From IMG/VR virus record IMGVR_UViG_3300026382_000001: DNA of 64,000 nucleotides, one strand, 5' to 3'. This DNA is from a virus. Its lineage: Duplodnaviria > Heunggongvirae > Uroviricota > Caudoviricetes. Each line of letters opens with the position of its first letter. The first letter of the stretch is position 1. A model generated the notes under the pieces. That model ran no database searches, was not told the origin of the DNA, and saw nothing but the letters and a program-made list of their open reading frames with translations. This document shows, one piece after another, positions 14,269 to 60,374 of the stretch. Both the position numbers and the translations under genes were made by a program.

Positions 14269-14285
14269 TTATTTTCCTTTAATTT

Positions 14286-14864: not shown

Positions 14865-14875
14865 ATTTTCTCCTT

Positions 14876-25016: not shown

Positions 25017-25025
25017 TTAATCTCC

Positions 25026-25532: not shown

Positions 25533-25557
25533 ATATTTTCCTTTTAATTAATTATAT

Positions 25558-30288: not shown

Positions 30289-30363
30289 AGAAGATTTCCT
30301 TTGTTTTTATTATATTATCTTTTGTTAAGTTATCTATAATTAGTCCTCTATATTTCTTCGGAA

Positions 30364-30403
30364 TTTAACGACAGGAAAATTCTAGAAGCATTGCTTCTAG
30401 AAT
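30364..30403 (-). terminator. Hairpin followed by TTTTCCTGTCGTTAAA
   Basis: Inverted repeat ATTCTAGAAGCA/TGCTTCTAGAAT at 30379-30403, just past the stop at 30410. Confidence 0.7.
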
Positions 30404-30409
30404 AATTAA

Positions 30410-33647: not shown

Positions 33648-33796
33648 TTTGTCTCCTTTAAAATACTTTTAGATACTTATAATATCTAAAAGGTAATTGT
33701 GGTAAAATATATAATAAATTAATATATTTATTATTAGAATAAACTCCATTCATATAACCAATCGAAGTAATAGTGAACCATTTTATATCATTGTAT

Positions 33797-34447
33797 CTAT
33801 CTTTTATTGACATATGTTCTCCTTTTCAATCTCTTTGGAATTTTATTTAAATTCTTAAATATATCTATATCAACTATATGAAAGTTCTCACGATAAGAAT
33901 ATAAAAAAGATTGAAATTCACCGAATGTAAAATAATCATCATTCTTACTATATTCGTATACTAAATATAATATTTTTTTTAATTTTTCTATATGTTTAAT
34001 ATCATTCTGATATATAAAAGAAATTAATGGATAATTTTTATTCGAATCTAATATATCCAATTGTATATTTAAAAAATATTCTAATTTTGTAAGGTTAACA
34101 GTTTCTTCATTTAGATATAATGCTCTGTTAATAATATTTAAATATCGGATATATAATTTTTTTTCGAAGGAGTTTAATTCCTTTTCAGTTACGCCTTTTG
34201 TTGGTAAATCATGTTTATTTACTCCTTGATATGAATCAACGTAAATATCTAATAATTTTCTTTCTTCTTCGGAAATAACTTTAAATGTCATATAAACATA
34301 TAAATCTTTAGTAAATGTATATAAATCATTTTTTAAATTTTCTTTTTTATTCATTAATGAAGCATTAAATAACCATTTTTGAATAAAATTAATATTTAAA
34401 AATTTCAAACATATTACTATTTTTAAGAATTGATATCCTTGGTACAT
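33797..34447 (-). CDS. Hypothetical protein
   Basis: 216-aa ORF; start uncertain. Confidence 0.55.
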   Translation of the reverse strand: MYQGYQFLKIVICLKFLNINFIQKWLFNASLMNKKENLKNDLYTFTKDLYVYMTFKVISEEERKLLDIYVDSYQGVNKHDLPTKGVTEKELNSFEKKLYIRYLNIINRALYLNEETVNLTKLEYFLNIQLDILDSNKNYPLISFIYQNDIKHIEKLKKILYLVYEYSKNDDYFTFGEFQSFLYSYRENFHIVDIDIFKNLNKIPKRLKRRTYVNKR

Positions 34448-34611
34448 GATTTTCCTTTGATTTTAATATAAAATTCTTTTAATTTTTTAAAAGAGTATTT
34501 AAAAAATACTCCAACGTAACCTATTTCCATTATTTCCAATTCTTTTTTAGAAATTCCGCCACATTGATAGTCGTAGTCTTCTGGAGTATATTTTTTAATG
34601 TTTTCGATCAT
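34423..34611 (-). CDS. Small hypothetical protein
   Basis: Starts directly after the helicase stop; AAGGA RBS. Confidence 0.45.
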   Translation of the reverse strand: MIENIKKYTPEDYDYQCGGISKKELEIMEIGYVGVFFKYSFKKLKEFYIKIKGKSCTKDINS

Positions 34612-42368: not shown

Positions 42369-44063
42369 TTAAATTTTTGTAGCATAGACTCCGTTACCAC
42401 AATCCCACTGAATCATATAATCGTTTGCTAAAATACATTCCTGAGCTGTTAAATTTTTATCGTAAACAAAACCAGGTATTTTTTCCAGTTTATGTTTTTG
42501 AAAAGTATTTCTTGGATACATTCTCGAACAATCTTTTGGGATTACGCTAAAGTTTGGGGAACTTTCATTAATATATACTAGACCTAATTGTTTATATAGA
42601 TTAGAATCATTTAAAGCACTCCAACGTCTATTAGCATAGGTTATAATTTTAGGATTATTTAATTCCTTTAAAACATATTTATATAATTTAGAAACTCCTC
42701 CATGAACTATAGTATATTTTTTAGTACATATTCTATGAATTTCATAATCGTATCGTCCATTATATCTAGATGCTCCCAAAGTAAATAATTGAACTAGTTC
42801 ATCCTGATAATATAATCCGTAGTGTTTTAATGAATTAATACTACCTTGTAAATGATTAAGTTCTTGAAATTCTCTAGATTCTTTTTTTGGAACTTCTTTT
42901 ATAATACATTTTCTACCTGGTATTTTATTAGGTATTTTTCCTATTTTTAAAAGTATTTTGCTTAACCAAATATCTTTTTTAATTGGATCTTTCCATTCTA
43001 ATTCATTAATTTGAAATAAATGAATTCCTAATTGAGTACAAGCTTCAAACTTTTTCAAATGTCTTTTCTTATTATAATAAGCGTCCGTTTGATTTTTAGA
43101 AGTAGCCATTTTCACATTAGTTAATGAATGCCAATATACCCCATTATATTCTATTGCAAATTTATAATCAGGGAAATAAAGATCTAATTCCATTCTACCA
43201 AATTTATGATTTTGGATAATTTTTATATCTGGAAAAGCATCTTTTATAAAATTATAAATTTCTTCTTCTGCTTTGGAACGAGTACTAGTGCATTTTGGAC
43301 AACCATGACCGGAACTCAAATGATTATTTGGACTTTGAAAAAAACTTCCATGTTCCGGACATATTATTTCTACTTTTTTCATAGCATTTGTATAATTAAC
43401 TTTACTATAATCATATTTATTAGAATGAACCTTTTTAAAATCTTGAATTGCTTCTTCAGTCGTTTTTAAAAAAGTACCGGCGCATTTTTTACAACCATGT
43501 TTAAAATGCTCTCCAACTGTTGTTTTAAATTCTCCATGTTCTGGACAAATTACTTTTATTTTGGTTAATGTATCGCTATTTTCTGGTAATTCATATTGGT
43601 ATTTATTTCCATAAATACTATAAAATCTTTTTAATATTTCTAAATTTCCTAGAAATTTTTTTGAATGGGCGCATTTCGGACAACCATGTCCTGAAGAGTG
43701 ATCAATTGGAGTCTGAAAAAAACTTCCATGTTTTGGACATATTATTTCTACTTTAGTATTCTTATTAACATACCCAACATTATTGTAATTATATTTATCC
43801 CCATGAACTTTTTTAAAATGGTTTATAATTTCTTCTTGTGTTAATAATTTTTTATTCGAACAAATTTGACAACCACCCATTGGTTTTTTAGTTCTAGATG
43901 AAATTTTTAAATGGTTATTTGGAGTTACTAAAAAACTCCCATGTTCTGGACAGATAATTTCTACCTTAGTATTTTTATTAATATAGTTAACTTTTGAATA
44001 ATCGTATTTATTACCATGTTTTTCTTTTGCCAAATTTATAAATTCTTCTTGTGTTATTGCCAT
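42369..44063 (-). CDS. Hef-like homing endonuclease with four Zn-binding repeats
   Basis: Four HG.KYDY..IICP.HG.F...H...GC..C repeats; ELDLYFPDYKFAIEYNGVYWH nuclease motif; additional C-terminal domain. Confidence 0.78.
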   Translation of the reverse strand: MAITQEEFINLAKEKHGNKYDYSKVNYINKNTKVEIICPEHGSFLVTPNNHLKISSRTKKPMGGCQICSNKKLLTQEEIINHFKKVHGDKYNYNNVGYVNKNTKVEIICPKHGSFFQTPIDHSSGHGCPKCAHSKKFLGNLEILKRFYSIYGNKYQYELPENSDTLTKIKVICPEHGEFKTTVGEHFKHGCKKCAGTFLKTTEEAIQDFKKVHSNKYDYSKVNYTNAMKKVEIICPEHGSFFQSPNNHLSSGHGCPKCTSTRSKAEEEIYNFIKDAFPDIKIIQNHKFGRMELDLYFPDYKFAIEYNGVYWHSLTNVKMATSKNQTDAYYNKKRHLKKFEACTQLGIHLFQINELEWKDPIKKDIWLSKILLKIGKIPNKIPGRKCIIKEVPKKESREFQELNHLQGSINSLKHYGLYYQDELVQLFTLGASRYNGRYDYEIHRICTKKYTIVHGGVSKLYKYVLKELNNPKIITYANRRWSALNDSNLYKQLGLVYINESSPNFSVIPKDCSRMYPRNTFQKHKLEKIPGFVYDKNLTAQECILANDYMIQWDCGNGVYATKI

Positions 44064-44113
44064 TTATAATCCTTTTTAGTAAATAATATATCTATGTATA
44101 ATACATATAGATA

Positions 44114-46135
44114 TTAAAATATTTTATAATCTTCCATATAGTATTCGTCGTCTTCATCCATTATAGACGTAAAACCAGGAATTTCAAATTCTTTTAGAAT
44201 TTCTCTTCTTCTTTGTTTTTCCTCATCTTTATCCGTAAAATGATTTCCTACTTCTTGAATGTTTTCAAAACTTTTTTGTTTATTAATAAGTTTAGCTTCA
44301 TTTTTAAAATCATGTTCCATAGTGCTAAAAGTAACATTCAGATAAGAATTAATCTCACCTTGAGTTATTTTTAATCCTTCCGGAGTATCTTCCGTAAGTA
44401 AATCTCCTTCCTGGATCATTTCATGTCTTAACCATAATGTGAAATTAAAAGCCATAATAATATCATCATGTTGTCCAGAACTTGCTTCAAATCTTCCGTT
44501 AGTTTTTTGCTCAAGAGTTCTTAATTCATTTTGTAAATATTTACCCTGCGCCAATGCTGGGTCAGTATTTAATGCACTTAGTAAAAGATTGAACATTTGC
44601 TCACGATTTGTTTTATTAGTCATAATACCTGGAACTCTATCACCAGTACTTTTAGTCTTAGTAAAATGCAAGAATTCTTCAAATTCAAATTTAATTTTAT
44701 CTGGAGCTTCTGAAAATAATATTTCCTCAATGATACCAATACCAAAACTATTTCGCTCTATAATTACACTTAGTGTTTTAGGAGTTAATCCACAAATCAG
44801 TTGTAATTGTAAAATGGCCGATTTAACAACGGCTGCGTATCTTTTAATAACATTAAATTTGCCTCTGTACTCTGCGACCTGTCTACCAGTTTCGGCATCT
44901 GTTAAAACCATTGTACTAAAATCCGATTTAGCTGCAGTACTGGCAGCATTATCCACACCCATTAGATATAATTTATTTGGATCAAGATCTTCAAATACAT
45001 CCATTTTTTCACCGTATGCTAAATCTAATTGAAATTTAGGTGGAGTTGGTTTAAAATGTTCCAGTACCTCATCTGGGAATACGGCATTATTAGAACCTAA
45101 GAAAACAAGGTTAAGCTCTTGGTTAACTCTTCTCATATTAAAGTTAAGTTCTTTTTGTTGCTTTTTATACCATTCTTCATCTTTGCCAGTCTCTGACCAA
45201 TGTAATTCTAACTTAACGAAGTTATTTCGGAAATCAGAGCTATTAAGAACCTTTTCATTATCAAGAACTGGTTTATTCGTTTTCTCATCCCATATTTCAG
45301 AATAGTCCCAAGAGTTTTGCCAAAGGTCATAAAAGAAGTTACCATTAGATCCATTTGGAGTAGTGGTCATAATAACATTCGTAGGGAAATTATTTTGTTT
45401 AGCAAGTACCCTCGCTTTTGAAACAACTGGTTGCAATGAACCCCAAACCACATCCATATGTGGGATAAAGGCAGCCTCATCTATGTAGATTACCGGAGCT
45501 GTCATACCACGTCCCACGGTATCCGGATTAATAGCTCCGGAAACATAATTCGAGTTTAATCTAGAACCATTTGCTAATTCTAGATAAGTTTGTTTTTCAC
45601 CTTTATTACTTTTAGGAACTTCTAACCATTTTGGAAGCATTGATAACATACTGTACATACGTTCAACGAAATCCAAAGCCGATTTTTGTTTTAGAGTTAA
45701 GAACTCTATTTTAACTTTTGGATGAAAAAGCATTACCCATAACAAATATTGTCCAACGGTGGTGGTCTTATAATGTTGCCTCGACGCCATCATATTAACA
45801 TTATCAGTGTATTGGATAAGTTTAATAAATTGTGAATATTTTGGAGTCTCTAACCACTCAGCAGATTCACCGACTTTAATAATTCCACCTGGTACCTGAA
45901 CTCTAATATAGTTTTTAATAAAATAAAGAGCACTCATTTTACATTTTAAATATTCTCTCATTCTCCATTGTTTATCTTGTTCTTGTTGTCTCATAATCGT
46001 TGGAGCATTTGGACTAGCATATTTAGCCATAAGATTTTGATCGGTTAAATTTTTTACTTGTTGAGCTTCTTCTGGAGAAACTTCTGTAATAATTTTATTA
46101 TCATTAATAATAATATTTTTTATATCTAAATTCAT
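44114..46135 (-). CDS. terL: Terminase large subunit (T4 gp17-like)
   Basis: ASRQHYKTT (Walker A), IYIDEAAF (Walker B), TTTPNG (motif III), GVD..., IERN, HDDIIMA (RNase H-like nuclease). Confidence 0.92.
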   Translation of the reverse strand: MNLDIKNIIINDNKIITEVSPEEAQQVKNLTDQNLMAKYASPNAPTIMRQQEQDKQWRMREYLKCKMSALYFIKNYIRVQVPGGIIKVGESAEWLETPKYSQFIKLIQYTDNVNMMASRQHYKTTTVGQYLLWVMLFHPKVKIEFLTLKQKSALDFVERMYSMLSMLPKWLEVPKSNKGEKQTYLELANGSRLNSNYVSGAINPDTVGRGMTAPVIYIDEAAFIPHMDVVWGSLQPVVSKARVLAKQNNFPTNVIMTTTPNGSNGNFFYDLWQNSWDYSEIWDEKTNKPVLDNEKVLNSSDFRNNFVKLELHWSETGKDEEWYKKQQKELNFNMRRVNQELNLVFLGSNNAVFPDEVLEHFKPTPPKFQLDLAYGEKMDVFEDLDPNKLYLMGVDNAASTAAKSDFSTMVLTDAETGRQVAEYRGKFNVIKRYAAVVKSAILQLQLICGLTPKTLSVIIERNSFGIGIIEEILFSEAPDKIKFEFEEFLHFTKTKSTGDRVPGIMTNKTNREQMFNLLLSALNTDPALAQGKYLQNELRTLEQKTNGRFEASSGQHDDIIMAFNFTLWLRHEMIQEGDLLTEDTPEGLKITQGEINSYLNVTFSTMEHDFKNEAKLINKQKSFENIQEVGNHFTDKDEEKQRRREILKEFEIPGFTSIMDEDDEYYMEDYKIF

Positions 46136-46160
46136 TAAAATCCTTTATTTCTATCTTTAG

Positions 46161-47255
46161 TTAACTATTGATAGTTAACTCGTTTAAAACTTCTTCAATG
46201 TCTTCAAAATATCCTATTCGAATAATTCTTATATCGTTTTTAATACAATATTCTGTTTTAATTTTATCACGTTCTTGAGTTTTTAAGAATCCTTCTAAAC
46301 CACCAAAATATGGTACTGGTTCAAAATGTTGTTTACCATCATACTCTATAACCGTATTTAAATCTTTTATATAAAAATCAAATCTATAATTATCAAATAG
46401 TTTAACTTCTTGAGAATATTTAATATTATTCTCTTCTAGAAATTCTCTAACTCTTCTTTCACCTTTAGATTCAGAATTTTTTTGAGCACATATTGGACAA
46501 CCAGATCCATTTTTATGATCGTTTGGTTTTTGAAAAAAACTTCCATGTTCTAGACAAATTATTTCTACTTTAGTCATAGTATTTATATAGTGTACTTTTG
46601 AATAATCGTATTTATTTCTATGAATTTCTTTAAAATCGTATATTATTTTATCCTGCGAATATGTATTTTTATTAATATAGCAATTTGGACAAAATGAATT
46701 ATCAGGGTTATTTTTTAAATGATTATTTGGTATACACCAAAACGATTTATTACAATTTTTACAAATTACTTCTATTTTTTCAAATCGATTTATATATTTA
46801 ACTTTACGGTAATCGTATTTATTGAAATGTTCTATTGGTAAAGATTTTAAAAAATTTTCTAATTTACCTGATTGTTTTTCTTTGGAACATTCCGGACAAC
46901 CATTTCCAGATTTATGAGACATCGGTGTTTGAAAAAAACTCCCATGTTTTGGACAAATAATCTCTATTTTAGTCATAGTATTTATATAGTGTACTTTTGA
47001 ATAGTTGTATTTATTATTATGAACTTTTTTAAAATCTTTTATATGTTTTTTTATTGGTTTTTTTAAAATAGAACATTTTGGACATTTATATTTTAAATGA
47101 TTATTTGGTGTTTGTAAAAATTCTCCATGTTCTGGACAGATTATAATAACTTTAGATTTAGATTTATGGTAAATTACTTTACTATAATCATATTTATCTC
47201 CATGAACTTCTTTAAATCTTTTTATAACTTCTTCTTGTGTTAATTTTTTACCCAT
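46161..47255 (-). CDS. Free-standing homing endonuclease: four Zn repeats plus Vsr/PD-(D/E)XK-like nuclease
   Basis: Repeats as above; SKGE...YRFDFY...VIEYDGKQH...RDKIK..YC. Confidence 0.8.
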   Translation of the reverse strand: MGKKLTQEEVIKRFKEVHGDKYDYSKVIYHKSKSKVIIICPEHGEFLQTPNNHLKYKCPKCSILKKPIKKHIKDFKKVHNNKYNYSKVHYINTMTKIEIICPKHGSFFQTPMSHKSGNGCPECSKEKQSGKLENFLKSLPIEHFNKYDYRKVKYINRFEKIEVICKNCNKSFWCIPNNHLKNNPDNSFCPNCYINKNTYSQDKIIYDFKEIHRNKYDYSKVHYINTMTKVEIICLEHGSFFQKPNDHKNGSGCPICAQKNSESKGERRVREFLEENNIKYSQEVKLFDNYRFDFYIKDLNTVIEYDGKQHFEPVPYFGGLEGFLKTQERDKIKTEYCIKNDIRIIRIGYFEDIEEVLNELTINS

Positions 47256-47294
47256 AAAAATCCTTTATTTCTATCTTTAGTTAACTAAAGATAG

Positions 47295-48380
47295 TTAACT
47301 ATTGATAGTTAACTCGTTTAAAACTTCCCCAACGTCTTCAAAATATCCTATACGAATAATTCTTATATCGTTTTTAATACAATAATCTGTTTTAATTTTA
47401 TCCCGTTCTTGAGTCTTTAAGAATCCTTCTAAACCACCAAAATATTCAACTGGTTCGTAATGCTGTTTACCATCATACTCAATGACAGTATTTAAATCTT
47501 TTAAATAAAAATCAAATCTATAATTCTCAAAGAGTTTAACTTCTTGAGAATATTTAATATTATTCTCTTCTAGAAATTCTCTAACTTTTCTTTCGCCCTT
47601 AGATTCAGAATTTTCTTGAGCGCATTTTGGACATATAGAACCTCTATAATGATTAAATGGGAGTTGCCAGAAACTCTCATGTTCTGGACAAATAATTTCA
47701 ATTTTTTCCATACTATGTATATAATTAACTTTAGAATAATTATAATTAGTTCCATGAATTTTTACAAATTTTTTAATAATTTCATTAGTGTTTGTAAAAT
47801 TTTGTTTTATAGAGCATTTTGGACAACCATGTCCTTTAAGATGGGAACTTGGAGTTTGTAAAAATTTTCCATGCTCTGGGCATATTATAATAACTTTATT
47901 ATTATTATTTTTATAATTAACTTTGGAATAGTTGTATTTATTACCATGAATTTTTTTAAAATCTTTTAATAATTTTTCAATTGGAGTTTTTAAATTATTA
48001 TAAAAACATTGTTTGCAACTTTGACCTCGTAAATGATTACTTGGTGTTTGAAAAAAACTTCCATGTTCTGGACAAATAATTTCTACCTTAGTCATATTAT
48101 TTTTATAATCGACTTTACTGTAATCATATTTATCCTCATGAAGTTCTCGAAATCTTTTAATAACTTCTTCTTGAGTTAATTTTAAATTTCCGGCACATTT
48201 GGAACAACCATAACCACTTAAATGATTATTTGGAGTTTGCAAAAATTCTCCATGCTCTGGACAGATTATAATAACCTTATCATTTATTCCAGAATATTGA
48301 ATTTTAGAATAATCGTATTTATCTCCATGAACTTTCCTAAATCTTTTTATAACTTCTTCTTGCGTTAGTTTTTTACCCAT
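47295..48380 (-). CDS. Free-standing homing endonuclease, tandem paralog
   Basis: Same N-terminus (MGKKLTQEEVIKRF) and near-identical nuclease domain and downstream flank as 46161..47255. Confidence 0.8.
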   Translation of the reverse strand: MGKKLTQEEVIKRFRKVHGDKYDYSKIQYSGINDKVIIICPEHGEFLQTPNNHLSGYGCSKCAGNLKLTQEEVIKRFRELHEDKYDYSKVDYKNNMTKVEIICPEHGSFFQTPSNHLRGQSCKQCFYNNLKTPIEKLLKDFKKIHGNKYNYSKVNYKNNNNKVIIICPEHGKFLQTPSSHLKGHGCPKCSIKQNFTNTNEIIKKFVKIHGTNYNYSKVNYIHSMEKIEIICPEHESFWQLPFNHYRGSICPKCAQENSESKGERKVREFLEENNIKYSQEVKLFENYRFDFYLKDLNTVIEYDGKQHYEPVEYFGGLEGFLKTQERDKIKTDYCIKNDIRIIRIGYFEDVGEVLNELTINS

Positions 48381-48430
48381 AAAATTTTCCTTATTGATAA
48401 AATATCTATTTAAACTAGAAATAATGTATA

Positions 48431-48557
48431 TAACTATTAATAGTTAACTATTTATAGTATGTGTACCAAATAGTTAACTATTAATAGTTATTCAGTATAG
48501 TTATCTATAATATCTATTTTGGAGATAACTATTAATAGTTAACTATTAATAGTTAAC
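48431..48557. repeat. Cluster of 14-bp palindromic units AACTATTAATAGTT
   Basis: Several tandem or overlapping copies in intergenic DNA; variants near 13261, 36434-36481, 46158, 47278, 54152. Confidence 0.8.
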
Positions 48558-48585
48558 CTGTTTTAAATATATTTATATTCTTATA

Positions 48586-48623
48586 TAACGACAGGAATAA
48601 ATGAGGCCGAAGCCTCATTTATT
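48586..48623 (-). terminator. cUUCGg hairpin followed by TTATTCCTGTCGTTA
   Basis: AATAAATGAGGC-CGAA-GCCTCATTTATT at 48596-48623, at the HU stop. Confidence 0.78.
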
Positions 48624-48882
48624 AAAGTTCTTTACCAAATTTAGATAAACTAAATTTAATAGTTTTGTGAGCAGGTTTAGTCCATTTCACACCATTCATT
48701 TCACCGGAACGTTCTTTAACGTCTACGTATTTGAACTTACCAATCTTTCCGAATGGAACCTCACCAGTCTCTTTAACACCAGCTACTACAGTATTAACAA
48801 CAGCTTCTAGAATTCTTTCCGCTTCTTTATTACTTATTTCTAATTTAGCTGCAAGAGCTTTTTCTAATTCGATTTTTTTCAT
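48622..48882 (-). CDS. hup: HU-family histone-like DNA-binding protein
   Basis: MKKIEL...ISNKEAERIL...GEVPFGKIGKF...KERSG...PAHKTIKFSLSK. Confidence 0.88.
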   Translation of the reverse strand: MKKIELEKALAAKLEISNKEAERILEAVVNTVVAGVKETGEVPFGKIGKFKYVDVKERSGEMNGVKWTKPAHKTIKFSLSKFGKEL

Positions 48883-48917
48883 TTATAATTTTCCTTATTT
48901 TAATAGTTTTATTTATT

Positions 48918-50048
48918 TTAGTTTGTTAGGTATGGTTTTACTTGTGTTAAAACTTCTCTAACATCTTCAAAATATCCTATTCGAATAATTCTTATATCGT
49001 TTTTAATACAATAATCGGTTTTAATTTTATCACATTCTTGAGTTTTCAAGAACCCTTCTAAACCACCAAAATATCCAATCGGTTCATAATGTTGTTTACC
49101 ATCATACTCAATGACAGTATTTAAATCTTCTAAATAAAAATCAAATCTATAATTATCAAAGAGTTTAACTTCTTGAGAATAATTAATATTATTCTCTTCT
49201 AGAAATTCTCTAACTTTTCTTTCTCCTTTGGATTCAGAGCATTTTGGACATCCATGTCCTTGAAGGTGGTTAGATTTGGTTTGTAAAAATTCTCCATGTT
49301 TTGAACATATTATTGGAATTAAAGAATTTAAATTTGTAGTATTATTCAAAAGTGAATAATCGTATTGATTACCATGAACTTTTTTAAAATTATTTATATT
49401 TTTTTCGGGTGTATTCATATTTTTTAAAATTCCACACTTTGGACAACCATTTCCGGAATTATGACTATTTGGAAGTTGTAAGAAACTTCCATGTTCCGGA
49501 CATATAATTTCTACTTTAGTATTGGAATCTATATAATTAACTTTTGAATAATCGTATTTATCTCCATGAATTTTTTTAAAATTCATGGTAATATTTTTGG
49601 TATTATTTGTATTTTCAATTCTTTTTTTAGATGCTTCTATCTTGGAGCATTTTGGGCAACCATGTCCTTTAAGATGAGAACTAGGAATTTGATCAAATTT
49701 ATTATTACAGGAATTACAAATTATTTTAACTTTGGTACTTCTATTAATATATTTAACTTCCGAATAATTGTATTTATTTCCATGAACTTCTTTAAATCTT
49801 TTTAAAATTTCTTCTTGTGTTAAACTTTTGGTACCTTTATTACCGGTTCTAGAAATTTTTCTAGAACATGCCGGACACTCAGAACCATTTTTAAAATTAA
49901 TAACAGTTGGGTAAAATTCACCATGTTCCGAACAAATTATAATGCATTTTTCCCGCATTTTAGAATATTTAAATTTACTATAATCGTATTTTGGATATTT
50001 TTCTTTAAGTTCTTCTAAAACTTTTATTGGATCGTTATAAAATGCCAT
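48918..50048 (-). CDS. Free-standing homing endonuclease (four Zn repeats plus nuclease)
   Basis: Nuclease domain near-identical to the 46161 and 47295 copies. Confidence 0.8.
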   Translation of the reverse strand: MAFYNDPIKVLEELKEKYPKYDYSKFKYSKMREKCIIICSEHGEFYPTVINFKNGSECPACSRKISRTGNKGTKSLTQEEILKRFKEVHGNKYNYSEVKYINRSTKVKIICNSCNNKFDQIPSSHLKGHGCPKCSKIEASKKRIENTNNTKNITMNFKKIHGDKYDYSKVNYIDSNTKVEIICPEHGSFLQLPNSHNSGNGCPKCGILKNMNTPEKNINNFKKVHGNQYDYSLLNNTTNLNSLIPIICSKHGEFLQTKSNHLQGHGCPKCSESKGERKVREFLEENNINYSQEVKLFDNYRFDFYLEDLNTVIEYDGKQHYEPIGYFGGLEGFLKTQECDKIKTDYCIKNDIRIIRIGYFEDVREVLTQVKPYLTN

Positions 50049-50077: not shown

Positions 50078-51241
50078 TTACTTAGAATATCTTTCGATAT
50101 CTTTTGTTAAATCTACTTCTTCGCTATCTAATGATAATCCCGTATGACTCGCTTTCAATGTTATATTTACTAAACTTTCCGCTAACGATGCGACAGACAT
50201 TTGACCAACTTTACTTCCTGGATACAATTTTAAATCCTCTACTGCTTTAGGATTATAACAAGTTTTACAAATACCATCTCGAGCCTGACAATAAAGAGGG
50301 CTTCTTAATTTAACGTTTTTACCTAAATAACTTTCGTCCTCATGATCTATAGTATTACCATTATCAAGAATCCTACCTTTAAGATTAAATAAGATTTTTT
50401 TACCATCTTTACCTTTTGGTATTTTAAATTCAAAATATTTTTTAGTACCACAGTCATTTAATTTAGATAAGTTCAGTGTTTCCATAATAGTATAAAGTTG
50501 TCTAATTAAATAACCAGGTTTAGCAGTATTCATTGATTTAGAATATAATGATACAATACCTTGAGAACTATAATTAAAGAATTGAGTTTTATCTAATCCT
50601 TCCGAATGAGCTTTAAGAATAACATCATTAATTTCTCCTTTAGCATTGATACTTAAACCAACTCCTAAAAGAAGTTTACGTATATCAGATACCGAACCTT
50701 TTGAACCAGAATCGATTAAATCGGAGACAGATATATTATTTTTACGAAAATATTCCATAACTTTTTCAGCAAGTTTATCTAATTCTTTATTGGCCTTAAT
50801 AATATCTTTTTCTTTTTTAGGAGAATTTTCATATTGTAATTTAATACGTTCTTTTTCTTTTTTAAATTCTTCTGGAAGTATCATACTCTCTGGAGAAAAG
50901 GAACTAGGTTTTAAAGTACTTAAAAAGAATCCAATTTCATAAACTAATTGATATTTCCAAATAAAAACGTCATCTTCAAAAACATCAAACATATCAGCAT
51001 ACAATTTTCCAATATTATCTTTATTTAAAGGAAATTTAATTTTAACTTTATTTTCGAGAACTTCGTTAAGCATTTTACGTACCAATTCTTTATCTAAGAA
51101 TCCATTCTTTTTAATACTTTCAAGTATTTCTTTTCTAAATATATCTTTAGTTTTAAAAAACCATTCTGGTGGTCTAAAAGCATTTGGTATAATTATTTTA
51201 GAGTTATATAATCTTGTACTATTTTCTATATTAATTGCCAT
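50078..51241 (-). CDS. rpoC: RNA polymerase beta' subunit, C-terminal piece (bridge helix, Zn site, trigger loop)
   Basis: IDSGSKGS, EGLDKTQFF, NTAKPGYLIRQL, DCGT, RSPLYC..GICKTCY, SLAESLVNITLKASHTG. Confidence 0.9.
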   Translation of the reverse strand: MAINIENSTRLYNSKIIIPNAFRPPEWFFKTKDIFRKEILESIKKNGFLDKELVRKMLNEVLENKVKIKFPLNKDNIGKLYADMFDVFEDDVFIWKYQLVYEIGFFLSTLKPSSFSPESMILPEEFKKEKERIKLQYENSPKKEKDIIKANKELDKLAEKVMEYFRKNNISVSDLIDSGSKGSVSDIRKLLLGVGLSINAKGEINDVILKAHSEGLDKTQFFNYSSQGIVSLYSKSMNTAKPGYLIRQLYTIMETLNLSKLNDCGTKKYFEFKIPKGKDGKKILFNLKGRILDNGNTIDHEDESYLGKNVKLRSPLYCQARDGICKTCYNPKAVEDLKLYPGSKVGQMSVASLAESLVNITLKASHTGLSLDSEEVDLTKDIERYSK

Positions 51242-52680
51242 TATATTCTCCTAATTCCAGCAGTTGCCATAAACGCTTCAAAATCATCTTCGTTAATTAT
51301 TTTTGAAGAATTCATTTTTAAATTTTGTACTAATGAAAAACTATTATATATTTTTTGCACTTTATTTTTAGAACCAGTAGTATCATTTGGTAATGATACT
51401 ATAAAATCATCATTTTCCAAAATAATATTATTTTGAGCAGCCTCGGATAAATCATCTTTAATAATATAATTACTAGAGAAGCTATCTCCACCGATTGGAG
51501 CATAAATTAAACTAGGTACTATAAGTTGGTACTGTACTCCAGTTAGTATTAATGGTTTAAAAGCCCACCAAGATACTGGAGTCCAACCAGGATCCCTTTT
51601 AGTAATTACCCTAATTTCTGAATTATCATTAAATATATCGGTAAGTAACTGAATCCATAATTCTTCGTGATGTGGATAAGTATTTAAGTACTCTTCTGTA
51701 TTTCTATAAATATATTCTAATTGTTTTCCAATATCATCTATAAGTAATTCTTTCATTCCTAATTTTTTAGAAACTTCCTCATATTCTGGTTTATTTAAAT
51801 AAGCTATTACAAAAACATCAAACATTATTAAAAGACCTTGCCAAGGAAAAGCGGCACTATCAGCTGGAATATCTGGCTGAGCATTTGCAACATATCTAGC
51901 TACATTATCAACACGCTTACCAAACAGAGAGGCATTAAAGAAACCATCTTTAGAATTTAATTTATCTAAAAAATATTCATAAAGTGTTTGAATATATCTT
52001 TGAACATATTCTTTTTTAGAAGTATTTTTATAAATACTTTGAATTACTTGTTCGAATTCATTTTGTTCATTTTTATCTAAATCTTTAATCCAATCCTTAC
52101 TTTCATTAATATTTACAATTTTTTTATAAATATCCGTAATTTCATCTTCTTCTACCATTCCATGTTTATTAGAATAATTTCTATATCCTATTGGAATTAC
52201 TGGTATTTTATCTATAATAATTAATTTTTTATCTTGTTGTAATAAATCAACAAAGTCTTTATTTTTATCATTTTTGTATTTATTAAAGTTAATCTTGTCC
52301 CAATTATTAATAAGAAAACTAACACCGTTTCCTCCAGAAGAACCTTTAGAAGCATCAGCATCTTCTAATACTCCATTGACAATATTACATTTAATTGCTT
52401 TATTAACACATTTGTTAAATAATCCTCCGAGGGAACCTATATTTTTATATACGAATGGGTGAAGAACTGGTTCCTCTAATTTTATATAAGCAAATTGATC
52501 AAAAATTTCTCTTGAACTAAAACCGAATATACTGGCATCGTAAAAACTTCCAGAATTTGGAATTAATTCATTATTAGCATCTCTTGTAAATGTTTTAGCT
52601 GTTTTTATAGCTCTGGTTTGATTTGGACCAGATTCCGGAGAGTTTACAAACTTCTCCATATTTAATAATTTCATTGGCAT
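51241..52680 (-). CDS. rpoC: RNA polymerase beta' subunit, N-terminal piece (399 aa ending GGD) fused to 80-aa putative N-intein
   Basis: SFYDASIFG, AYIKLEEPVLHP, IPVIPIGYR, LFGKRVD..AR, KRDP, LIYAPIGGD; homology stops in the middle of the NADFDGD-equivalent motif. Confidence 0.88.
   Translation of the reverse strand: MPMKLLNMEKFVNSPESGPNQTRAIKTAKTFTRDANNELIPNSGSFYDASIFGFSSREIFDQFAYIKLEEPVLHPFVYKNIGSLGGLFNKCVNKAIKCNIVNGVLEDADASKGSSGGNGVSFLINNWDKINFNKYKNDKNKDFVDLLQQDKKLIIIDKIPVIPIGYRNYSNKHGMVEEDEITDIYKKIVNINESKDWIKDLDKNEQNEFEQVIQSIYKNTSKKEYVQRYIQTLYEYFLDKLNSKDGFFNASLFGKRVDNVARYVANAQPDIPADSAAFPWQGLLIMFDVFVIAYLNKPEYEEVSKKLGMKELLIDDIGKQLEYIYRNTEEYLNTYPHHEELWIQLLTDIFNDNSEIRVITKRDPGWTPVSWWAFKPLILTGVQYQLIVPSLIYAPIGGDSFSSNYIIKDDLSEAAQNNIILENDDFIVSLPNDTTGSKNKVQKIYNSFSLVQNLKMNSSKIINEDDFEAFMATAGIRRI
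51244..51483 (-). mobile_element. Putative split intein N-fragment (80 aa)
   Basis: Begins SFSSNYII (block A-like, Ser1) immediately after GGD; LENDDFIVSLPNDTTG..KVQKIY resembles early Hint-domain strands. Confidence 0.65.
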
Positions 52681-52706
52681 TGGATTGTTTCCTTTTGTAT
52701 TTTCTT

Positions 52707-53603
52707 TTATTTAGAAGCTAAATATTTAGTATAATTATAATTATTTTCATTTTCCGGACGAATATGAATATCTTTGATAGGTGTTTTAAAAACACTAGTA
52801 GCATTTCGAATCGTTTGGGCATCTGGATTAGTATGATGCATTTTATAATAATTCTGTTTTAATTGAGCGTCGGTATCACCTTCTGGTATATTATGAAATT
52901 GATATTTTCCATTACCTTGTCCAATTTGATGAGCTAGAGATAAATTGGTCATTTCTGGTCTACTTAATTTAGATACATCTACATCGCTAACATATTTACC
53001 AAGTTCTTTATTATAATGTAAATTTTTGGTTGCATTCTCTACCCACGGCATAGTTTCTTTATGAAGTACTCCATCACGTAATCCACGTTTTAAATCAGTC
53101 GTAGCAGTATCATTTGTAAATTGATACAACCCTTGAGCAGTGGTTGGTTTAACTCCATTTATAGGAATATTTCCACCATGTGTGTATCCAGAATTTTCAG
53201 TTTGTCCTAATCGAACCTGCCAATCATGTGTATTTTGAACGCCTTGCTCTAAAGTTCCTTTACTTATTCGAAATGGTTGATTATGTAAACCAACGTCTCC
53301 GTTCATACCATTTCGAATAATTTCTACCGAATCATTATCGAAGTATGGATAACGTTCTGGAATTACGTTATTTTCTGGATGATCTGCACTCGGAATAGGT
53401 TTAATTGGTGGAAATGGTTCTCCTTGAATATCTGGATCTTTATCAAGTATTCTTTCATTTTGAATATAATGTTTTAACGGAGTTCCAGCTTTTTTAACTT
53501 TTTCAAAAGCGGCATCATTATCAACATCATTCTCAGACCAATGGTCCATCATGTATTGCATATAATCTTCTAATAATAATTTTTTATTTAATTCTAATTT
53601 CAT
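52707..53603 (-). CDS. Protein with lysozyme/lytic transglycosylase-like domain
   Basis: QTENSG...TTAQGLYQFTNDT resembles the E-S/N...AxGxxQF motif. Confidence 0.45.
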   Translation of the reverse strand: MKLELNKKLLLEDYMQYMMDHWSENDVDNDAAFEKVKKAGTPLKHYIQNERILDKDPDIQGEPFPPIKPIPSADHPENNVIPERYPYFDNDSVEIIRNGMNGDVGLHNQPFRISKGTLEQGVQNTHDWQVRLGQTENSGYTHGGNIPINGVKPTTAQGLYQFTNDTATTDLKRGLRDGVLHKETMPWVENATKNLHYNKELGKYVSDVDVSKLSRPEMTNLSLAHQIGQGNGKYQFHNIPEGDTDAQLKQNYYKMHHTNPDAQTIRNATSVFKTPIKDIHIRPENENNYNYTKYLASK

Positions 53604-53665
53604 TTTAATCTCTTTTGATTTTATATAAGAATTAGTTCTTTTAATTAAAATTTGCTCCTTTAAAA

Positions 53666-53800
53666 TACTTTAAAATAAGTTATTTATTATATAGATATCT
53701 TATAATCAGTAAAGAGTTGAATCATTAGCAAAATGATTTATTTTTATAGCATAATCCTAATGCTGGATATACCTCCGATAAAGGAGAAGAAGGAGTTATT
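53666..53800 (+). promoter_or_regulatory. Bipartite phage promoter plus structured leader, copy 3
   Basis: TACTTTAAAATAA-N11-TATAGATATCTTATAATCAG, then AGCATAATCCTAATGCTGGAT and the CTCC/GGAG hairpin before the RBS. Confidence 0.65.
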
Positions 53801-54037
53801 ATGGCAAGTAATCAAAATATTAAAAATCATAAAAATCATAAAAATGGGAATCGTCCTCAAAGACGAAACCCATATTCGCGATTAAGTGTAATAGCGATAG
53901 CCAATGCTATCGCATTTACTCAAAGTCGTTTGGAGAACGAATATTCTCCAAACGTAGTACGAGCTTACCATCAAGATCTTAGAGATCTTGGTTATGCTCT
54001 TATAGAGATTGCTAATGATGGTTTATACCAAAATTAG
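53801..54037 (+). CDS. Small hypothetical protein with basic N-terminus
   Basis: Has its own promoter, AAGGAG RBS and terminator. Confidence 0.7.
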   Translation: MASNQNIKNHKNHKNGNRPQRRNPYSRLSVIAIANAIAFTQSRLENEYSPNVVRAYHQDLRDLGYALIEIANDGLYQN

Positions 54038-54045
54038 CAATCTCT

Positions 54046-54075
54046 AGGAAAGGATAGATATATCCTTTCCTTTCT
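54046..54075 (+). terminator. Intrinsic terminator
   Basis: AGGAAAGGATA-GATA-TATCCTTTCCT-TTCT. Confidence 0.65.
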
Positions 54076-54116
54076 CTCGACAAAATAAAATAATTTTTAG
54101 AACATTCAGTGGAATT

Positions 54117-54157
54117 AAACGACATGAAAACTATTCATGGTGGTACCATGAATAGTT
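54117..54157 (-). terminator. Hairpin followed by TTTTCATGTCGTTT
   Basis: AACTATTCATGGT/ACCATGAATAGTT stem at 54129-54157, after the primase stop. Confidence 0.7.
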
Positions 54158-54184
54158 AACTATTAATAGTTATCTAGTTTATTA

Positions 54185-57181
54185 TTAATCTATATTTTTT
54201 AATTTTGGAGGTTCCGGAATACTTTGGGAAAGATTATTTTTCTCTTCTTCGTAATGAACTTCTTCCTCTGCTATTAAATTTTCACCTGCGCTTAACGTAT
54301 CTAAAGGATTCATCTTTTTAATTTTAGTTTGAACTCTTTTAATTTTTTTCGTAATTTCTGGAATTTCTTCTAAAATAATATTAGAAGAACTTAGAGATTT
54401 TTCAAGTTTCTTTTTATTAATAACTAAAACAACTTCGCTATTTTTTATTTCAATACTAATTCCAAAAAATTCTAAATTATTATTAGCTAAGAATCTTTGA
54501 ACACTCGTACTTACTTTAAAATTAAGACTTTGTAAATATCTATTAATAAGAGTTAATGAAATATTACCACTCTTTGAAAATTGATCCTTAATTTGATCCA
54601 GTAATTCAAGATTGTTTTTCATCATAATTGGATCAGATACATTTTCATTAAGCTGTAGTCCAATATCTTTCCATTCCCCTTTTAACATTAAAAGTACTAA
54701 TTCCCCAAATGGATGCATTTTAAGTACTTGGGTATAAAAAGTGGCATTCTTAAGATTTGTCATAGCTTTTGGTTTATCTAATTTATTATTTAAAATAATT
54801 GCCCAAAAAGTTTCTAATTCTTCCTTTACATTACTTACGAATTGCTCTATACTTAATCCAAGAGATTCCGTTAATTCTAATAAAGTAATTTCCGAATTAA
54901 AATAAACCATACGTCTATCTGAACTTGGATGTCTTGCTGGTACTTGACCATTACTAAACATCATTATATTTAATTTCTTAGTTTTAGATTGTGTGTCGAC
55001 TCCTTTCTTTTCAATAAGAAGTTTATCGGAACCAGTAATAAGTTTTAATGCATCGTTACTTTTTTGAGTACTAAAATCTCCTTCATCTAGAACCATTAAA
55101 GAACAACTTTCTAAAATACTATTAAAGTTTGACATAAGTCTATCCGTACTAAGAATTTTAGTAAACTCTGAATTTATATACCATTCTAAAATAGTACTTA
55201 CGAATAAGTTTTTACCAGCTCCAGGAACACCAAAGAATACCGGAATAGTTGGGAGTACATAATGATTAGCTGTAGCAGTTAACCAGTTAATAAACCACCC
55301 TAAATCACCTCTTTGTACTAACTGTAATATATATTTATATGTCCAAGGTGTTTTCTCTTTAAGCATAATAATGGTATCGTTTACTTCTAATTGCTCTGGA
55401 AATTCTTCTTTTAAAGTATCGTTAGCCGAATGAGCTTTTTCGTAATTTTTACTTGGTACCCAAAGATTTACAAACTTAATAAAGTTTCTTTGAAAGACAG
55501 TTGGTTTACCTGGTTGAAATTCTTCAAAAGCTTCTATAAGAATTTTTCTTTCAAAAGCTCTAGCAAATTCTTTTTGAAATTCAAAATCAATATCAGTAAC
55601 ATTTAATTGATTACTAAGGACATGATTTGCTAACATTACCATACCATCAAATGAATAAACTTCTCCAGAATCAATATGTCTAATAATACAAGCTCTATTT
55701 TTATTAGCTAATCTATAATAAACATAATCATCCTGATTAATTTTATCAATAAGAACTTCGATTAGTTCATCCATTTCCATTTTTTCAAATTCTTTACGAT
55801 CAGCCTTCTTGAATTTAATTCCGGCTAAATCAGCAATTTTATTAATTGCGTCACCTTTATTAAGTTCATGAACTTTCATAAATGCTTCAACTATACTATA
55901 TGATTGATTATCGTGGAAATCTTCGAATTTTAAAGAATTTTTATAAATTGCCATACTTGGTTTAGTCTCTTCGTGAAATAGACAATTAATTTTCCAATAA
56001 CTACCATGATCTTCGAAATTAACATCTGGGAACAGAGCTGCTAAATTAAAAATACCATCCTGAATCTTTTGTTTAAGATTTTGTACTAATTCGTACTCAA
56101 GTGGATTAGTATTTAAAATATTTAAATTATTTTTATTCTGAGCTAAATCAATTCGCGCATCTTCAGCTAAAATATCTTTTGGAAACATTAAAGCTTGTGT
56201 ATTTTCGCTAAGCTTTTGAAAACTTTTAATAATACCAATATAGTAATCTTCGTAACTTTTCTTTTGAATATCCGTATATCCGCTAGCTAAAATTTCATTA
56301 TCTATCTCAGTAATGATTTTATTGAACTCTAATTTTAAAGGATCTTGATTAAAGAAATCAAATATCCCAGTGGTTCCAATAGTATGGAATGTTGGAATAT
56401 TTCCATACTTTTGGTGAACGATACCAGCAGCTCTTTGAGTATGAGAAATATCTTTAAATGATGCATCAAAATCCATAATAATTTCAGAGAAATTACCCAT
56501 AATATCTTTAACGAGAACTCCAAAAGTTTTCTTACCAAGAATAGCACCAAGTCTATTAAAAATTAACTTTGCATCCCCAGCATATAAATCTTGGTCAAAA
56601 TCAAAAGCTATTTGAATTCCCCCACCAGTTACCATACTGAATGAAGGAATTATTGATTCAAAACCATGTCCTTTCAATAAAGAAAATAATTCTAAATAAC
56701 TTCTAATAATTACCATCTTTTGATAATTTTCTTCTAAAGAATAAACATGAAATCTTTCTTTAGTTCCTTTGATATGTGCATCAATATCAAGTACAATAGT
56801 ATTTAATTTTTTAAAAGTATTGATACTTGGTGCTTTTACATTACCTTTTTCATTAAGGTTTTTTGGATCGTATTCAAAAATTCCGGTACTTATCGAAATA
56901 CCACAATCATGATGAGGCAAAGAAACTATTTTATTTTTTAAATAGTTTATTAAATTATTTGGGTTCTTTAATTGAACATTATCTGTAATTTCAAAATCTT
57001 TTATATTTTCATATTTTCCACGAATCTCTTGTTTAACTTTAGCTTGAAAAACTATTCTAGCTGTTTCATCTTCTTTAAAATCATTAACTTTGAATATTTT
57101 ATTCCAGTAAGTTATGATATCTTGTTCGTTCATAATTTGAGTAAAATTTATTTCTTGATTATTTTGAGGTGCAGATTGCAT
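54185..57181 (-). CDS. Primase-helicase (AEP-like primase, Zn-finger-like segment, D5/SF3-like helicase)
   Basis: IVLDIDAH, VTGGGIQI; CLFHEETKPSM; FFGVPGAGKN, MVLDE, FSN, DRR. Confidence 0.8.
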   Translation of the reverse strand: MQSAPQNNQEINFTQIMNEQDIITYWNKIFKVNDFKEDETARIVFQAKVKQEIRGKYENIKDFEITDNVQLKNPNNLINYLKNKIVSLPHHDCGISISTGIFEYDPKNLNEKGNVKAPSINTFKKLNTIVLDIDAHIKGTKERFHVYSLEENYQKMVIIRSYLELFSLLKGHGFESIIPSFSMVTGGGIQIAFDFDQDLYAGDAKLIFNRLGAILGKKTFGVLVKDIMGNFSEIIMDFDASFKDISHTQRAAGIVHQKYGNIPTFHTIGTTGIFDFFNQDPLKLEFNKIITEIDNEILASGYTDIQKKSYEDYYIGIIKSFQKLSENTQALMFPKDILAEDARIDLAQNKNNLNILNTNPLEYELVQNLKQKIQDGIFNLAALFPDVNFEDHGSYWKINCLFHEETKPSMAIYKNSLKFEDFHDNQSYSIVEAFMKVHELNKGDAINKIADLAGIKFKKADRKEFEKMEMDELIEVLIDKINQDDYVYYRLANKNRACIIRHIDSGEVYSFDGMVMLANHVLSNQLNVTDIDFEFQKEFARAFERKILIEAFEEFQPGKPTVFQRNFIKFVNLWVPSKNYEKAHSANDTLKEEFPEQLEVNDTIIMLKEKTPWTYKYILQLVQRGDLGWFINWLTATANHYVLPTIPVFFGVPGAGKNLFVSTILEWYINSEFTKILSTDRLMSNFNSILESCSLMVLDEGDFSTQKSNDALKLITGSDKLLIEKKGVDTQSKTKKLNIMMFSNGQVPARHPSSDRRMVYFNSEITLLELTESLGLSIEQFVSNVKEELETFWAIILNNKLDKPKAMTNLKNATFYTQVLKMHPFGELVLLMLKGEWKDIGLQLNENVSDPIMMKNNLELLDQIKDQFSKSGNISLTLINRYLQSLNFKVSTSVQRFLANNNLEFFGISIEIKNSEVVLVINKKKLEKSLSSSNIILEEIPEITKKIKRVQTKIKKMNPLDTLSAGENLIAEEEVHYEEEKNNLSQSIPEPPKLKNID

Positions 57182-57213
57182 TATTGTTTTCCTTATCTTA
57201 TTAATATTTATAT

Positions 57214-58101
57214 CTATAATTTGTATTCTAAGAATTCCTCTATATTATTAAAATAATATTGTGGTATTCTTATAAGTTTTATATTGTTCTTTCTACAATA
57301 TTCATTTTTTATAAAATCTCTTTTTTGAATAATTTTAAAAGTTTTTTCTCCGCCAAAATATTTTATTGGTTTAAAATGTTGTTCTCCATCGAATTCAATA
57401 ATTACGTTTAAATTTGGTAAATAAAAATCAAATGGTAAAACTTTTTTAAATTTACAATCTTTAAAAATTTTTTCCTGAATATAATTTATATTATTTTCTT
57501 CTAAATAATTTCTTATTTTATTTTCACCAAACGAATTTTTGCATTTCGGACAACCATTTCCATTTCTATGATTCATCGGCATTTGAAAGAATTTCCCATG
57601 TTCCGGACAGATAATTTCTACTTTAGTCGTAGTATTTTCATATTGTACTTTTGAATAATCGTATTTATTCCCATGAACTTTTCTAAAATCTTTTATAACT
57701 TTATCTAAGTTTTTTCTAGATTTATCATTAGAACATTTTTGACAACCATACGATAAATGTCCATTTGGTTGTTGAAAAAAACTTCCATGTATCGTACAAA
57801 TTATTTCGATCGGTGTTTTGGAATCTTTATAAATTACTTTCGAGTAATCGTATTTATTCCCATGAACATTTTTAAAATCTTCTATAACTTTATCTAAGTT
57901 TTTAAATTTATTAATTTTGGCACATTCTTGACATCCATTTCCATACATATGATCTTTAGCCGTTTGTAAAAATTCGCCATGTATTGGACATATTATAATT
58001 AATTTATTAAAAATTCCAGTATATTTAGATTTTGAATAATTATATTTATCTCCATGTTTATTTATAGAACGTTTTATAAATATTTTAGTATTTAAAGCCA
58101 T
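57214..58101 (-). CDS. Free-standing homing endonuclease (three Zn repeats plus nuclease)
   Basis: Repeats; SFGE...LPFDFYL...IIEFDGEQH...RD..KNEYC. Confidence 0.8.
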   Translation of the reverse strand: MALNTKIFIKRSINKHGDKYNYSKSKYTGIFNKLIIICPIHGEFLQTAKDHMYGNGCQECAKINKFKNLDKVIEDFKNVHGNKYDYSKVIYKDSKTPIEIICTIHGSFFQQPNGHLSYGCQKCSNDKSRKNLDKVIKDFRKVHGNKYDYSKVQYENTTTKVEIICPEHGKFFQMPMNHRNGNGCPKCKNSFGENKIRNYLEENNINYIQEKIFKDCKFKKVLPFDFYLPNLNVIIEFDGEQHFKPIKYFGGEKTFKIIQKRDFIKNEYCRKNNIKLIRIPQYYFNNIEEFLEYKL

Positions 58102-58110
58102 ACCAGTATC

Positions 58111-59325
58111 CTATTTAGTAGCGTTATATAACCCTAATTGACTGTCAGTCTTTACACCCCAATTTTGTATATTTAAATTAGCAGGATTAACGAATTTCGT
58201 TTTATTAGTAGCACTAAAATTTTCAGAAGCTTCTTTAGCTGCTTCTTTAGAAAATAATGCCATTGCCGCTAGGATATCACCATCAGAGTTTTTCAATAAT
58301 GGTAATCCGTCCAAATAAAAGTTATGAGCATTATCATTTTCCATAACTAAATCAACCATTTTTAAATTATCTTGATTTACCTGAACTTTTTCAAATACTA
58401 TATCAGTACACGGAATTAATTCAATTTCCCCAGAGTTTATACCAACTGGATCTAAATTATTTTCCATACTTCTAATATCATTTATATCATTATAAAATTT
58501 TAAGTACCTGGTTTTAATTTGACCATTTATTATAAAATATTTTAAATTTCTAAATTTAAATTGTAAATCTTTTAAAATATCTAACTCATTTTCTTTTATT
58601 AATAATTTATATAAGTATGAACTGAACTTATATCTTACTATAAAATTTTCATCTTTTTTACGAATACTATAACTAGCTTCCAAAAGATTAAAAATTAAAC
58701 CAACGCTATATAAATTGATATTTTCTGGTATAATTCCAGAATTTTTAAATAATTCTGTTAACCCTAATAAAAATTTATAATTTGAATTTACTAAAATACC
58801 TTTGTTAAAACTAACTTTATTATTTTTAAAAGTTATAAAATTACTTATGAATATTTTTTCAGTCTCGGTAAAATTTTTAGAAAATTGAAATGATTCATCA
58901 GAATAAAGTAAATGTATAATAATTTCTTTAGCAAAAGAATATGTTAATTTAATTTGAAATTCTTTATTATTATTTTTATCTTTAATAATTAAAATTTCAT
59001 TATTTCTTTTTTGAAACGAGTACTTCCAAAATAAAAAATAATTATCTGGATCACGTTGTATTTCTGTAACCGTTGGGGCCTGTAATTCTAAGGTTTCTTT
59101 ATTAAGAGTGATTATAGATTCTTTTTCAGAAATTCTAAAATCGGTTTTTTTATTAAAGAGACCTAAGTTAATTCTATTCTTATGAATTCCAAAATCATTC
59201 TTACTTAGGATTCGGTATTGTATTGGTACTTCGTGGATACTAGTACCAATAATTTCTTGAGTTATATTTTTAGTTTCATGTACTTTATTAATTGTTTCTG
59301 TACTTATGACTTTTTTAAAAGACAT
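58111..59325 (-). CDS. rpoC: Split intein C-fragment (346 aa) fused to 58-aa RNA polymerase beta' segment carrying the rest of the catalytic motif
   Basis: MVDLVMENDNAHNFYLDGLPLLKN|SDGDILAAMALFSKEAAKEA...FVNPAN...DSQLGLYNATK matches beta' [20 protein letters not shown]...ILSPAN...DVVLGLYYMT. Confidence 0.88.
   Translation of the reverse strand: MSFKKVISTETINKVHETKNITQEIIGTSIHEVPIQYRILSKNDFGIHKNRINLGLFNKKTDFRISEKESIITLNKETLELQAPTVTEIQRDPDNYFLFWKYSFQKRNNEILIIKDKNNNKEFQIKLTYSFAKEIIIHLLYSDESFQFSKNFTETEKIFISNFITFKNNKVSFNKGILVNSNYKFLLGLTELFKNSGIIPENINLYSVGLIFNLLEASYSIRKKDENFIVRYKFSSYLYKLLIKENELDILKDLQFKFRNLKYFIINGQIKTRYLKFYNDINDIRSMENNLDPVGINSGEIELIPCTDIVFEKVQVNQDNLKMVDLVMENDNAHNFYLDGLPLLKNSDGDILAAMALFSKEAAKEASENFSATNKTKFVNPANLNIQNWGVKTDSQLGLYNATK
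58288..59325 (-). mobile_element. Putative split intein C-fragment with degenerate LAGLIDADG-like region
   Basis: Block F (VDL...HNFY), block G (LKN|S), block-B-like FRISEKESIITL, FLLGL.. remnant. Confidence 0.78.
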
Positions 59326-59383
59326 TTTTGTTTCCTTTATTTCGTTGTAAAATCTTCTTGTTTCTTATTCATTAATATATCTA

Positions 59384-60332: not shown

Positions 60333-60374
60333 TTTAACGACAGGAAAATTTGAGGAATTAATTCCTCAAATTTT
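60333..60374 (-). terminator. Hairpin followed by TTTTCCTGTCGTTAAA
   Basis: AAAATTTGAGGAATT/AATTCCTCAAATTTT at 60345-60374. Confidence 0.7.

Follow-up and report, generated by a model that had tools for sequence, protein, structure and literature searches.

The stretch of DNA analysed here, a 64,000-nucleotide window of the tailed-phage record IMGVR_UViG_3300026382_000001 (Caudoviricetes), encodes the beta' N-terminal subunit of an RNA polymerase in two distant genes, with the break inside the catalytic DxDGD motif, so that one catalytic Asp lies in one gene and two lie in the other. Conservation and structural models make it very probable that class 1 oxyester trans-splicing by a split intein, aided by His31 and Asp325 of the intein C-fragment, builds the catalytic loop. 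That trans-splicing assembles the catalytic triad was the core of the original prediction made from the sequence of this window, and it is well supported by conservation, colinearity and models, from which we infer it.

Both open reading frames lie on the minus strand. The N-piece (51241..52680) follows RNA polymerase up to Gly-Gly-Asp, where Asp399 (codon 51486-51484) is the first catalytic Asp of DxDGD, and then switches to Ser1 (AGC) and a tail of 80 amino acids (aa). The C-part (58111..59325) runs to Asn346 (codon 58290-58288), which is followed by a Ser (TCT) as Ser+1 of a 58-aa C-extein. The C-part gene is located 6.8 kb upstream of the N-piece gene, i.e. the order is reversed relative to the protein, and an endonuclease, the primase-helicase and two other genes lie between them; for the open reading frames, the junction codons and the reversed order the original prediction was accurate. 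The N-extein (51484..52680, minus strand) comprises residues 1-399 of what is, by homology, a virion-type beta' N-terminal subunit, with profile matches to solved beta' chains, including the 426-aa, phage-sized chain 7s01_d, and to phrog_2986 (E=5e-28). The C-extein (58114..58287, minus strand) contains Ser+1 and the second and third catalytic Asp and terminates at the same place where intein-less beta' N-subunits end.

Joining the two exteins yields a protein that is colinear with its host family. Against a reference profile of 430 positions, built from 26 intein-less relatives only, the joined 457-aa product matched end to end (E=2e-83, positions 1-429/430) and gapless at the junction, as had been predicted for the spliced product, while the C-extein alone matched positions 371-429 (E=7e-14). 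The correct join outscored all four register shifts by 6-14 bits. Related phages were found to hold both intein-less and contiguous-intein alleles, which the prediction had named as informative. A DNA-pattern search for the uninterrupted motif led to an intein-less phage gene with Cys at position x of DxDGD and its C-terminus at the same place, and a representative search added many more intein-less alleles with tails of 54-70 aa past the motif. Nine different residues occupy x among the intein-less relatives. The Ser that replaces the Phe of the motif is indeed present, but it is a family trait (Ser at x in 5/26 intein-less alleles) and not special to the split gene. Ser+1, in contrast, is invariant, since all 74 C-gene homologues have the junction Asn followed by Ser-Asp-Gly-Asp, as expected of a ligation nucleophile. 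Five proteins have a contiguous intein at this very position, whose first residue is Cys, Ser or Thr (Thr1 in P0136) and whose terminal Asn precedes Ser-Asp-Gly; one of these inteins has a LAGLIDADG domain, and their family profile matched the C-fragment (91.5%, E=9e-7). Because these inteins sit at exactly the same site, the segments flanking the break are most likely intein halves.

The intein N-fragment (51244..51483, minus strand; 80 aa, 36-90 aa in relatives) consists of Ser1, block A, an inserted beta-hairpin, a strand and a helix, and, judged against the contiguous inteins, the split falls behind the first helix, at the S2 site. The C-fragment (58288..59325, minus strand; 346 aa, the last two being Lys-Asn) comprises a Hint N-part (1-101), a LAGLIDADG-derived remnant (about 102-300) and a Hint C-part (301-346). 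The residues of a class 1 intein are in place: Ser1 is invariant in the 36/36 aligned N-fragments, and Asp325 of block F (58351..58353, minus strand), Asn346 and Ser+1 in the 72/72 aligned C-fragments, as is Asn335, with both Ser codon boxes in use at Ser1 and at Ser+1. His31 (59233..59235, minus strand; 72/72) corresponds to the one column that never varies in inteins of the same family and is found before block B, near Ser1 and at the end of a long strand in the models of both the C-fragment and a contiguous relative. Its location is that described for the NX (block-X) His, which Ser1 inteins critically need and which lets PolB16 tolerate the loss of its block B His (PMC10189870); His31 is a candidate catalytic residue of this kind. 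Searches of PDB sequences with intein profiles gave chance-level matches only. Residues 41-60 (59146..59205, minus strand) include an insert of some 15-18 aa, with invariant G55, F57, N58 and K60, that is present only in the split clade.

The AF2 model of the C-fragment (pLDDT 83) found its best Foldseek matches in endonuclease-containing inteins (E=9e-6), and VIA comparison with inteins gave Z 8-12, the match beginning at residues 20-47 of the solved inteins, which points to a Hint fold without its first strands. A model of the two-fragment complex scored 0.90 and the best control 0.00, on a scale where the docking mark was reached by 58/80 solved complexes and 2/110 mismatched pairs; the runs shared at least 62% of contacts, with a partner pLDDT of at least 67. 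In the model, residues 397-409 pack onto the splice junction, block F and residues 27-31, which puts His31 in the interface, and the hairpin added to the N-fragment (420-430) packs onto remnant residues 112-117 and 176-180. Fold match and co-folding, the latter a check proposed with the prediction, both came out in favour of a Hint domain divided over two genes, although split-gene halves can score by likeness to solved structures, so that the complex model supports rather than shows binding. Charge complementarity between the fragments followed no pattern. The remnant retains its endonuclease fold (I-DmoI, Z 4.5 over 125-254), and no conserved Asp/Glu-Gly of an active LAGLIDADG enzyme follows either of its helices. 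Pfam and PHROGs returned no match to the C-fragment of the window, Intein_splicing was matched by only 10/72 of its relatives, and family scans of the genome for inteins detected only that of ribonucleotide reductase, whose large subunit (G000:140019-143909, outside the window) has a contiguous intein ending near 142073.

Several observations weigh against this interpretation. The block B His of the TxxH motif is present in 12/72 C-fragments (Glu69 here), the block F His in 12/72 and the penultimate His in 7/72, while the block B His is conserved in all Ser1 inteins examined by Pasch et al. (PMC10189870). In the inteins of the same study Arg/Lys precedes the NX His, whereas the residue before His31 is Lys in 37/72 only and Ile in the window, and a His equivalent to His31 is not confined to Ser1 inteins but also kept in Cys1 relatives. 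Further, the genome record is partial (59%), and it is by homology that the subunit is assigned to the virion-type enzyme.

Across a whole clade the arrangement is fixed. In each of the 37 near homologues of the N-piece, Gly-Gly-Asp is followed by Ser and a short terminal tail, and both junctions were found on 16 other distinct contigs, 4.4-8.1 kb apart and with the C-part first in 16/16. The primase-helicase lies between the halves at the same position in relatives, in several of which the C-fragment gene, the primase and the N-piece follow one another directly and in the same direction. The free endonuclease next to the C-gene was considered as the cause of the split and rejected, given that it is absent in many relatives and has many copies elsewhere. 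In a quick tree of N-exteins (midpoint root only), one branch (SH-aLRT 98) has the 29 split proteins on the same side, contiguous inteins are scattered among intein-less relatives, and one long-branched intein-less protein with Ser at x (P0134, L041:89-1387) is nested with the split proteins. The simplest reading of this tree is one origin of the split and one possible re-fusion (P0134). For the two most divergent N-pieces (L042, L043) no C-fragment was found within the fetched DNA of their contigs, and another divergent split N-fragment (P0132) has Cys1. None of the cultured phages searched has the C-fragment. The ratio of nonsynonymous to synonymous substitution rates (dN/dS) was 0.08-0.14 in the N-extein, 0.04-0.16 in the C-extein and 0.01-0.13 in the Hint C-part, with 0.2-0.8 in the endonuclease remnant and the N-fragment, and open frames and invariant catalytic motifs persist across 22-95% identity. 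Judging from these sequence comparisons, exteins and Hint C-part are under purifying selection.

In the scenario that we favour, an intein would have invaded the catalytic loop of a virion-type beta' N-subunit, separating the first Asp from a Ser at x, and would then have broken after its first helix, its 3' half coming to lie upstream of the primase-helicase gene. The two halves would be translated separately, and the short N-fragment is modelled to complete the Hint fold of the C-fragment. Ser1 would attack the Asp-Ser bond, probably with assistance from His31 and Asp325, Ser+1 would take over the ester, Asn346 would cyclise, and an O-N shift would give a 457-aa subunit with three Mg-binding Asp that could assemble with the beta' C-subunit and the beta chains into the virion-type polymerase. 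The class 1 oxyester splicing route itself is established chemistry. As a split intein is not deletable in one step, it may have become an obligate, vertically inherited maturation step, for which no regulatory role is needed.

Splicing might nonetheless be regulatory as well, gating the virion polymerase by timing, temperature or a ligand that would bind the endonuclease remnant or the conserved insert; the two ideas are not exclusive, but we consider this addition unlikely. Conditional inteins are known (PMC8987985), the remnant has been retained and the insert is invariant, and the motif TAGATAT precedes the C-gene and the primase but is missing within 80 nt of the N-piece, with an opposite-strand gene in between. 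On the other hand, irreversibility suffices for fixation, as argued for cyanobacterial dnaE (PMC2677866), the intein-less allele inside the split clade suggests that the intein is dispensable, and several relatives have the genes immediately next to each other in one direction. The post-translational switch of the original prediction is unsupported. An equally doubtful proposal combines a Ser/Ser splicing type relying on one non-canonical His and no classical one with reuse of the dead endonuclease and the insert for docking the N-fragment hairpin, and with a checkpoint that would keep the virion polymerase inactive until packaging.

Considerably less probable is cleavage without ligation, in which the halves are cut free and the exteins form the active site non-covalently. 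Jumbo-phage polymerases consist of several separate beta and beta' chains (PMC7824862, PMC13282480), a second polymerase of this phage is broken just before its DxDGD, and the usual splicing His residues are missing. Here, however, a single short loop is interrupted between two of its metal ligands. Free termini inside a metal-binding loop would add charges. Moreover, Ser+1 is kept in all C-gene homologues although x varies in intein-less alleles, which is better explained by trans-splicing.

The phage has two RNA polymerases. A second set (G000:28497-30545, 33614-35155, 19748-21766 and 24758-25960, all outside the window) includes a beta' C-chain (28497-30545) that starts with an intact DYDGD, the chain break being just before DxDGD. 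The two sets match different PHROG families and occur together in five relatives, two of them near-complete genomes in which the only copy of the subunit under study is split. With the intein-less protein P0133 as query, the family of this subunit was closer to annotated viral (E=2e-30) than to non-viral beta' (2e-7). The presence of a second set, the position of DxDGD at the C-terminal end of the beta' N-subunit and the viral homology all suggest that the split-intein polymerase is of the virion type and the intact-DYDGD polymerase of the non-virion type. In phages of the phiKZ/AR9 kind two polymerases are the norm and both are used (PMC13282480). The claim that a functional phage RNA polymerase depends on trans-splicing would hold for the putative virion-type enzyme but not for the second one, which has an intact DYDGD. 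An intact DxDGD elsewhere had been named as a sign that the split pieces are relics and that the intact polymerase performs all phage transcription. Such a subunit literally exists, yet it does not refute trans-splicing because it is part of the other polymerase and because purifying selection acts on the pieces. With dN/dS of 0.01-0.16 in exteins and Hint C-part, open frames and invariant motifs over the whole identity range, and two polymerases being normal for this phage type (PMC13282480), the relic reading is largely refuted and very improbable. Just as improbable is joining at the RNA level or misassembly in a phage rich in mobile endonuclease genes, as the break is flanked on both sides by open and conserved frames that encode intein sequence, with junction residues of the protein level, and two exact contigs of one run, which may be of the source sample, tile the region while the same reversed order on 16 other contigs excludes misassembly.

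There is precedent for split inteins in essential phage enzymes, for halves lying far apart and for atypical split sites, each taken by itself (PMC2677866, PMC13014065, PMC10189870). The PolB16 OarG intein (PMC10189870; PDB 8cpn/8cpo) is likewise natural, atypically split and of the Ser1 type, with a separate and critical NX His, a dispensable block B His and a similarly long spacing between both positions (68 to 109 in PolB16, 31 to 69 here). It is split after strand 2 (15 aa) and not after helix 1 (36-90 aa), its host is a DNA polymerase, it keeps the block B His that most members have lost here, and it differs in the endonuclease remnant found here on the C-fragment. According to a 2026 paper, no other natural intein is known to be both cysteine-less and atypically split (PMC13014065). 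AceL-TerL and GOS-TerL have the same S2 split after the first helix (PMC13014065), but they are cysteine-dependent, with terminase hosts and N-fragments up to 37 aa, whereas both nucleophiles are Ser here. The Aes123 PolB1 split intein (PDB 9hth), cysteine-less too, was the best structural match of the contiguous relative (E=3e-8) and the third for the C-fragment (Z 10.8), but it has the canonical split position and both the block X and the block B His.

Cyanobacterial DnaE and Nanoarchaeum Pol are cellular DNA polymerases split at the canonical site. With the present case they share separate-gene halves and a single break fixed in an essential enzyme (PMC2677866). The fractured phage genes of Dassa et al. 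2009 (PMC2677866) also have split inteins in essential nucleic-acid enzymes with endonucleases nearby, and no RNA polymerase host appears in the text of that paper. In those genes the halves retain their original order and flank an endonuclease, whereas here the order is reversed, the spacer is a primase-helicase and the endonuclease is often absent. Two beta/beta' sets are shared with phiKZ, AR9/PBS1, phiR1-37 and Staphylococcus phage Machias, which differ in that no cultured phage has this intein, and identities are about 25-35%. Contiguous inteins near the active site of RNA polymerases (Goodwin et al. 2006, PMC1635734) are all in cis and mostly in the second-largest subunit, with none reported inside the Asp triad in the passages covered. 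What is particular here is the reversed order around the primase, the clade-wide fixation, the S2 split combined with Ser/Ser, the loss of the classical His and the retention of the remnant. The literature searched, the coverage of which was incomplete, yielded no report of a naturally split intein within the catalytic loop of an RNA polymerase. If splicing is confirmed, this would be a multisubunit RNA polymerase with three catalytic Asp from two genes, without match in that literature. One site displays all states (empty, contiguous mini, contiguous with endonuclease, split and permuted), making the family a direct test bed for the origin and fixation of split inteins, and over 70 natural sequences, representing a second type beside PolB16, can test whether the NX His alone replaces the classical His. 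Nine related beta' proteins (P0161, P0189, P0199, P0202, P0206, P0226, P0228, P0245, P0250) have an intein that begins directly behind FDGD, at a second site three residues downstream of the first, and ends 33-139 aa later; they may be further split inteins or truncated contigs, and three of the nine have an NX-like His plus the block B His.

Among the neighbouring genes, the beta' C-terminal subunit of the same polymerase (50078..51241, minus strand; Pfam Rpb1_4, Rpb1_5; phrog_2962) is a separate chain without intein. The conserved spacer gene between the halves is the primase-helicase (54185..57181, minus strand; Pfam Zn_ribbon_DnaG, DUF5906). A 78-aa gene between primase and N-piece (53801-54037, plus strand) has a strong ribosome-binding site and encodes a basic, Asn-rich N-terminus, and the gene preceding the N-piece (52707-53603), kept in close relatives only, gave a weak transglycosylase match (phrog_4067, E=3e-4). 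The free-standing endonuclease (57214..58101, minus strand), with zinc-finger repeats and a DUF559-like end, is one of many copies: at least five related genes lie at 42369-50048 and 57214-58101 of the window, around terminase and polymerase genes, and further copies elsewhere in the genome.

The virus record comprises 167 kb with 26% GC and an estimated completeness of 59%, and an identical N-piece protein also occurs on a 281-kb contig. Most of the stretch is present in three runs, all of them hydrothermal vent metagenomes and two possibly of the source sample, consistent with an uncultured jumbo phage from vents; no RNA dataset was listed as containing it. A phage-encoded CheY (G000:55664-56077, outside the window) is 54-61% identical to Campylobacterota proteins, and its best 80 genome matches are Campylobacterota wherever named, a weak hint at a host from this phylum. 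TAGATAT, a candidate phage promoter by its placement, occurs 21-60 nt before 22/167 starts versus 2.4 expected (e.g. 59376-59383 and 57209-57216), while sigma-70 and terminator scans remained at chance level. The element TTTCCTGTCG is repeated at 30369-30378 and 60338-60347, at 60338 directly after a 15-pair hairpin, and is possibly a terminator or processing site. Finally, a long co-directional cluster extends beside a fibre-like gene at 206-16723 of the window, with a CxxxCxxC open reading frame at 14876-16723.

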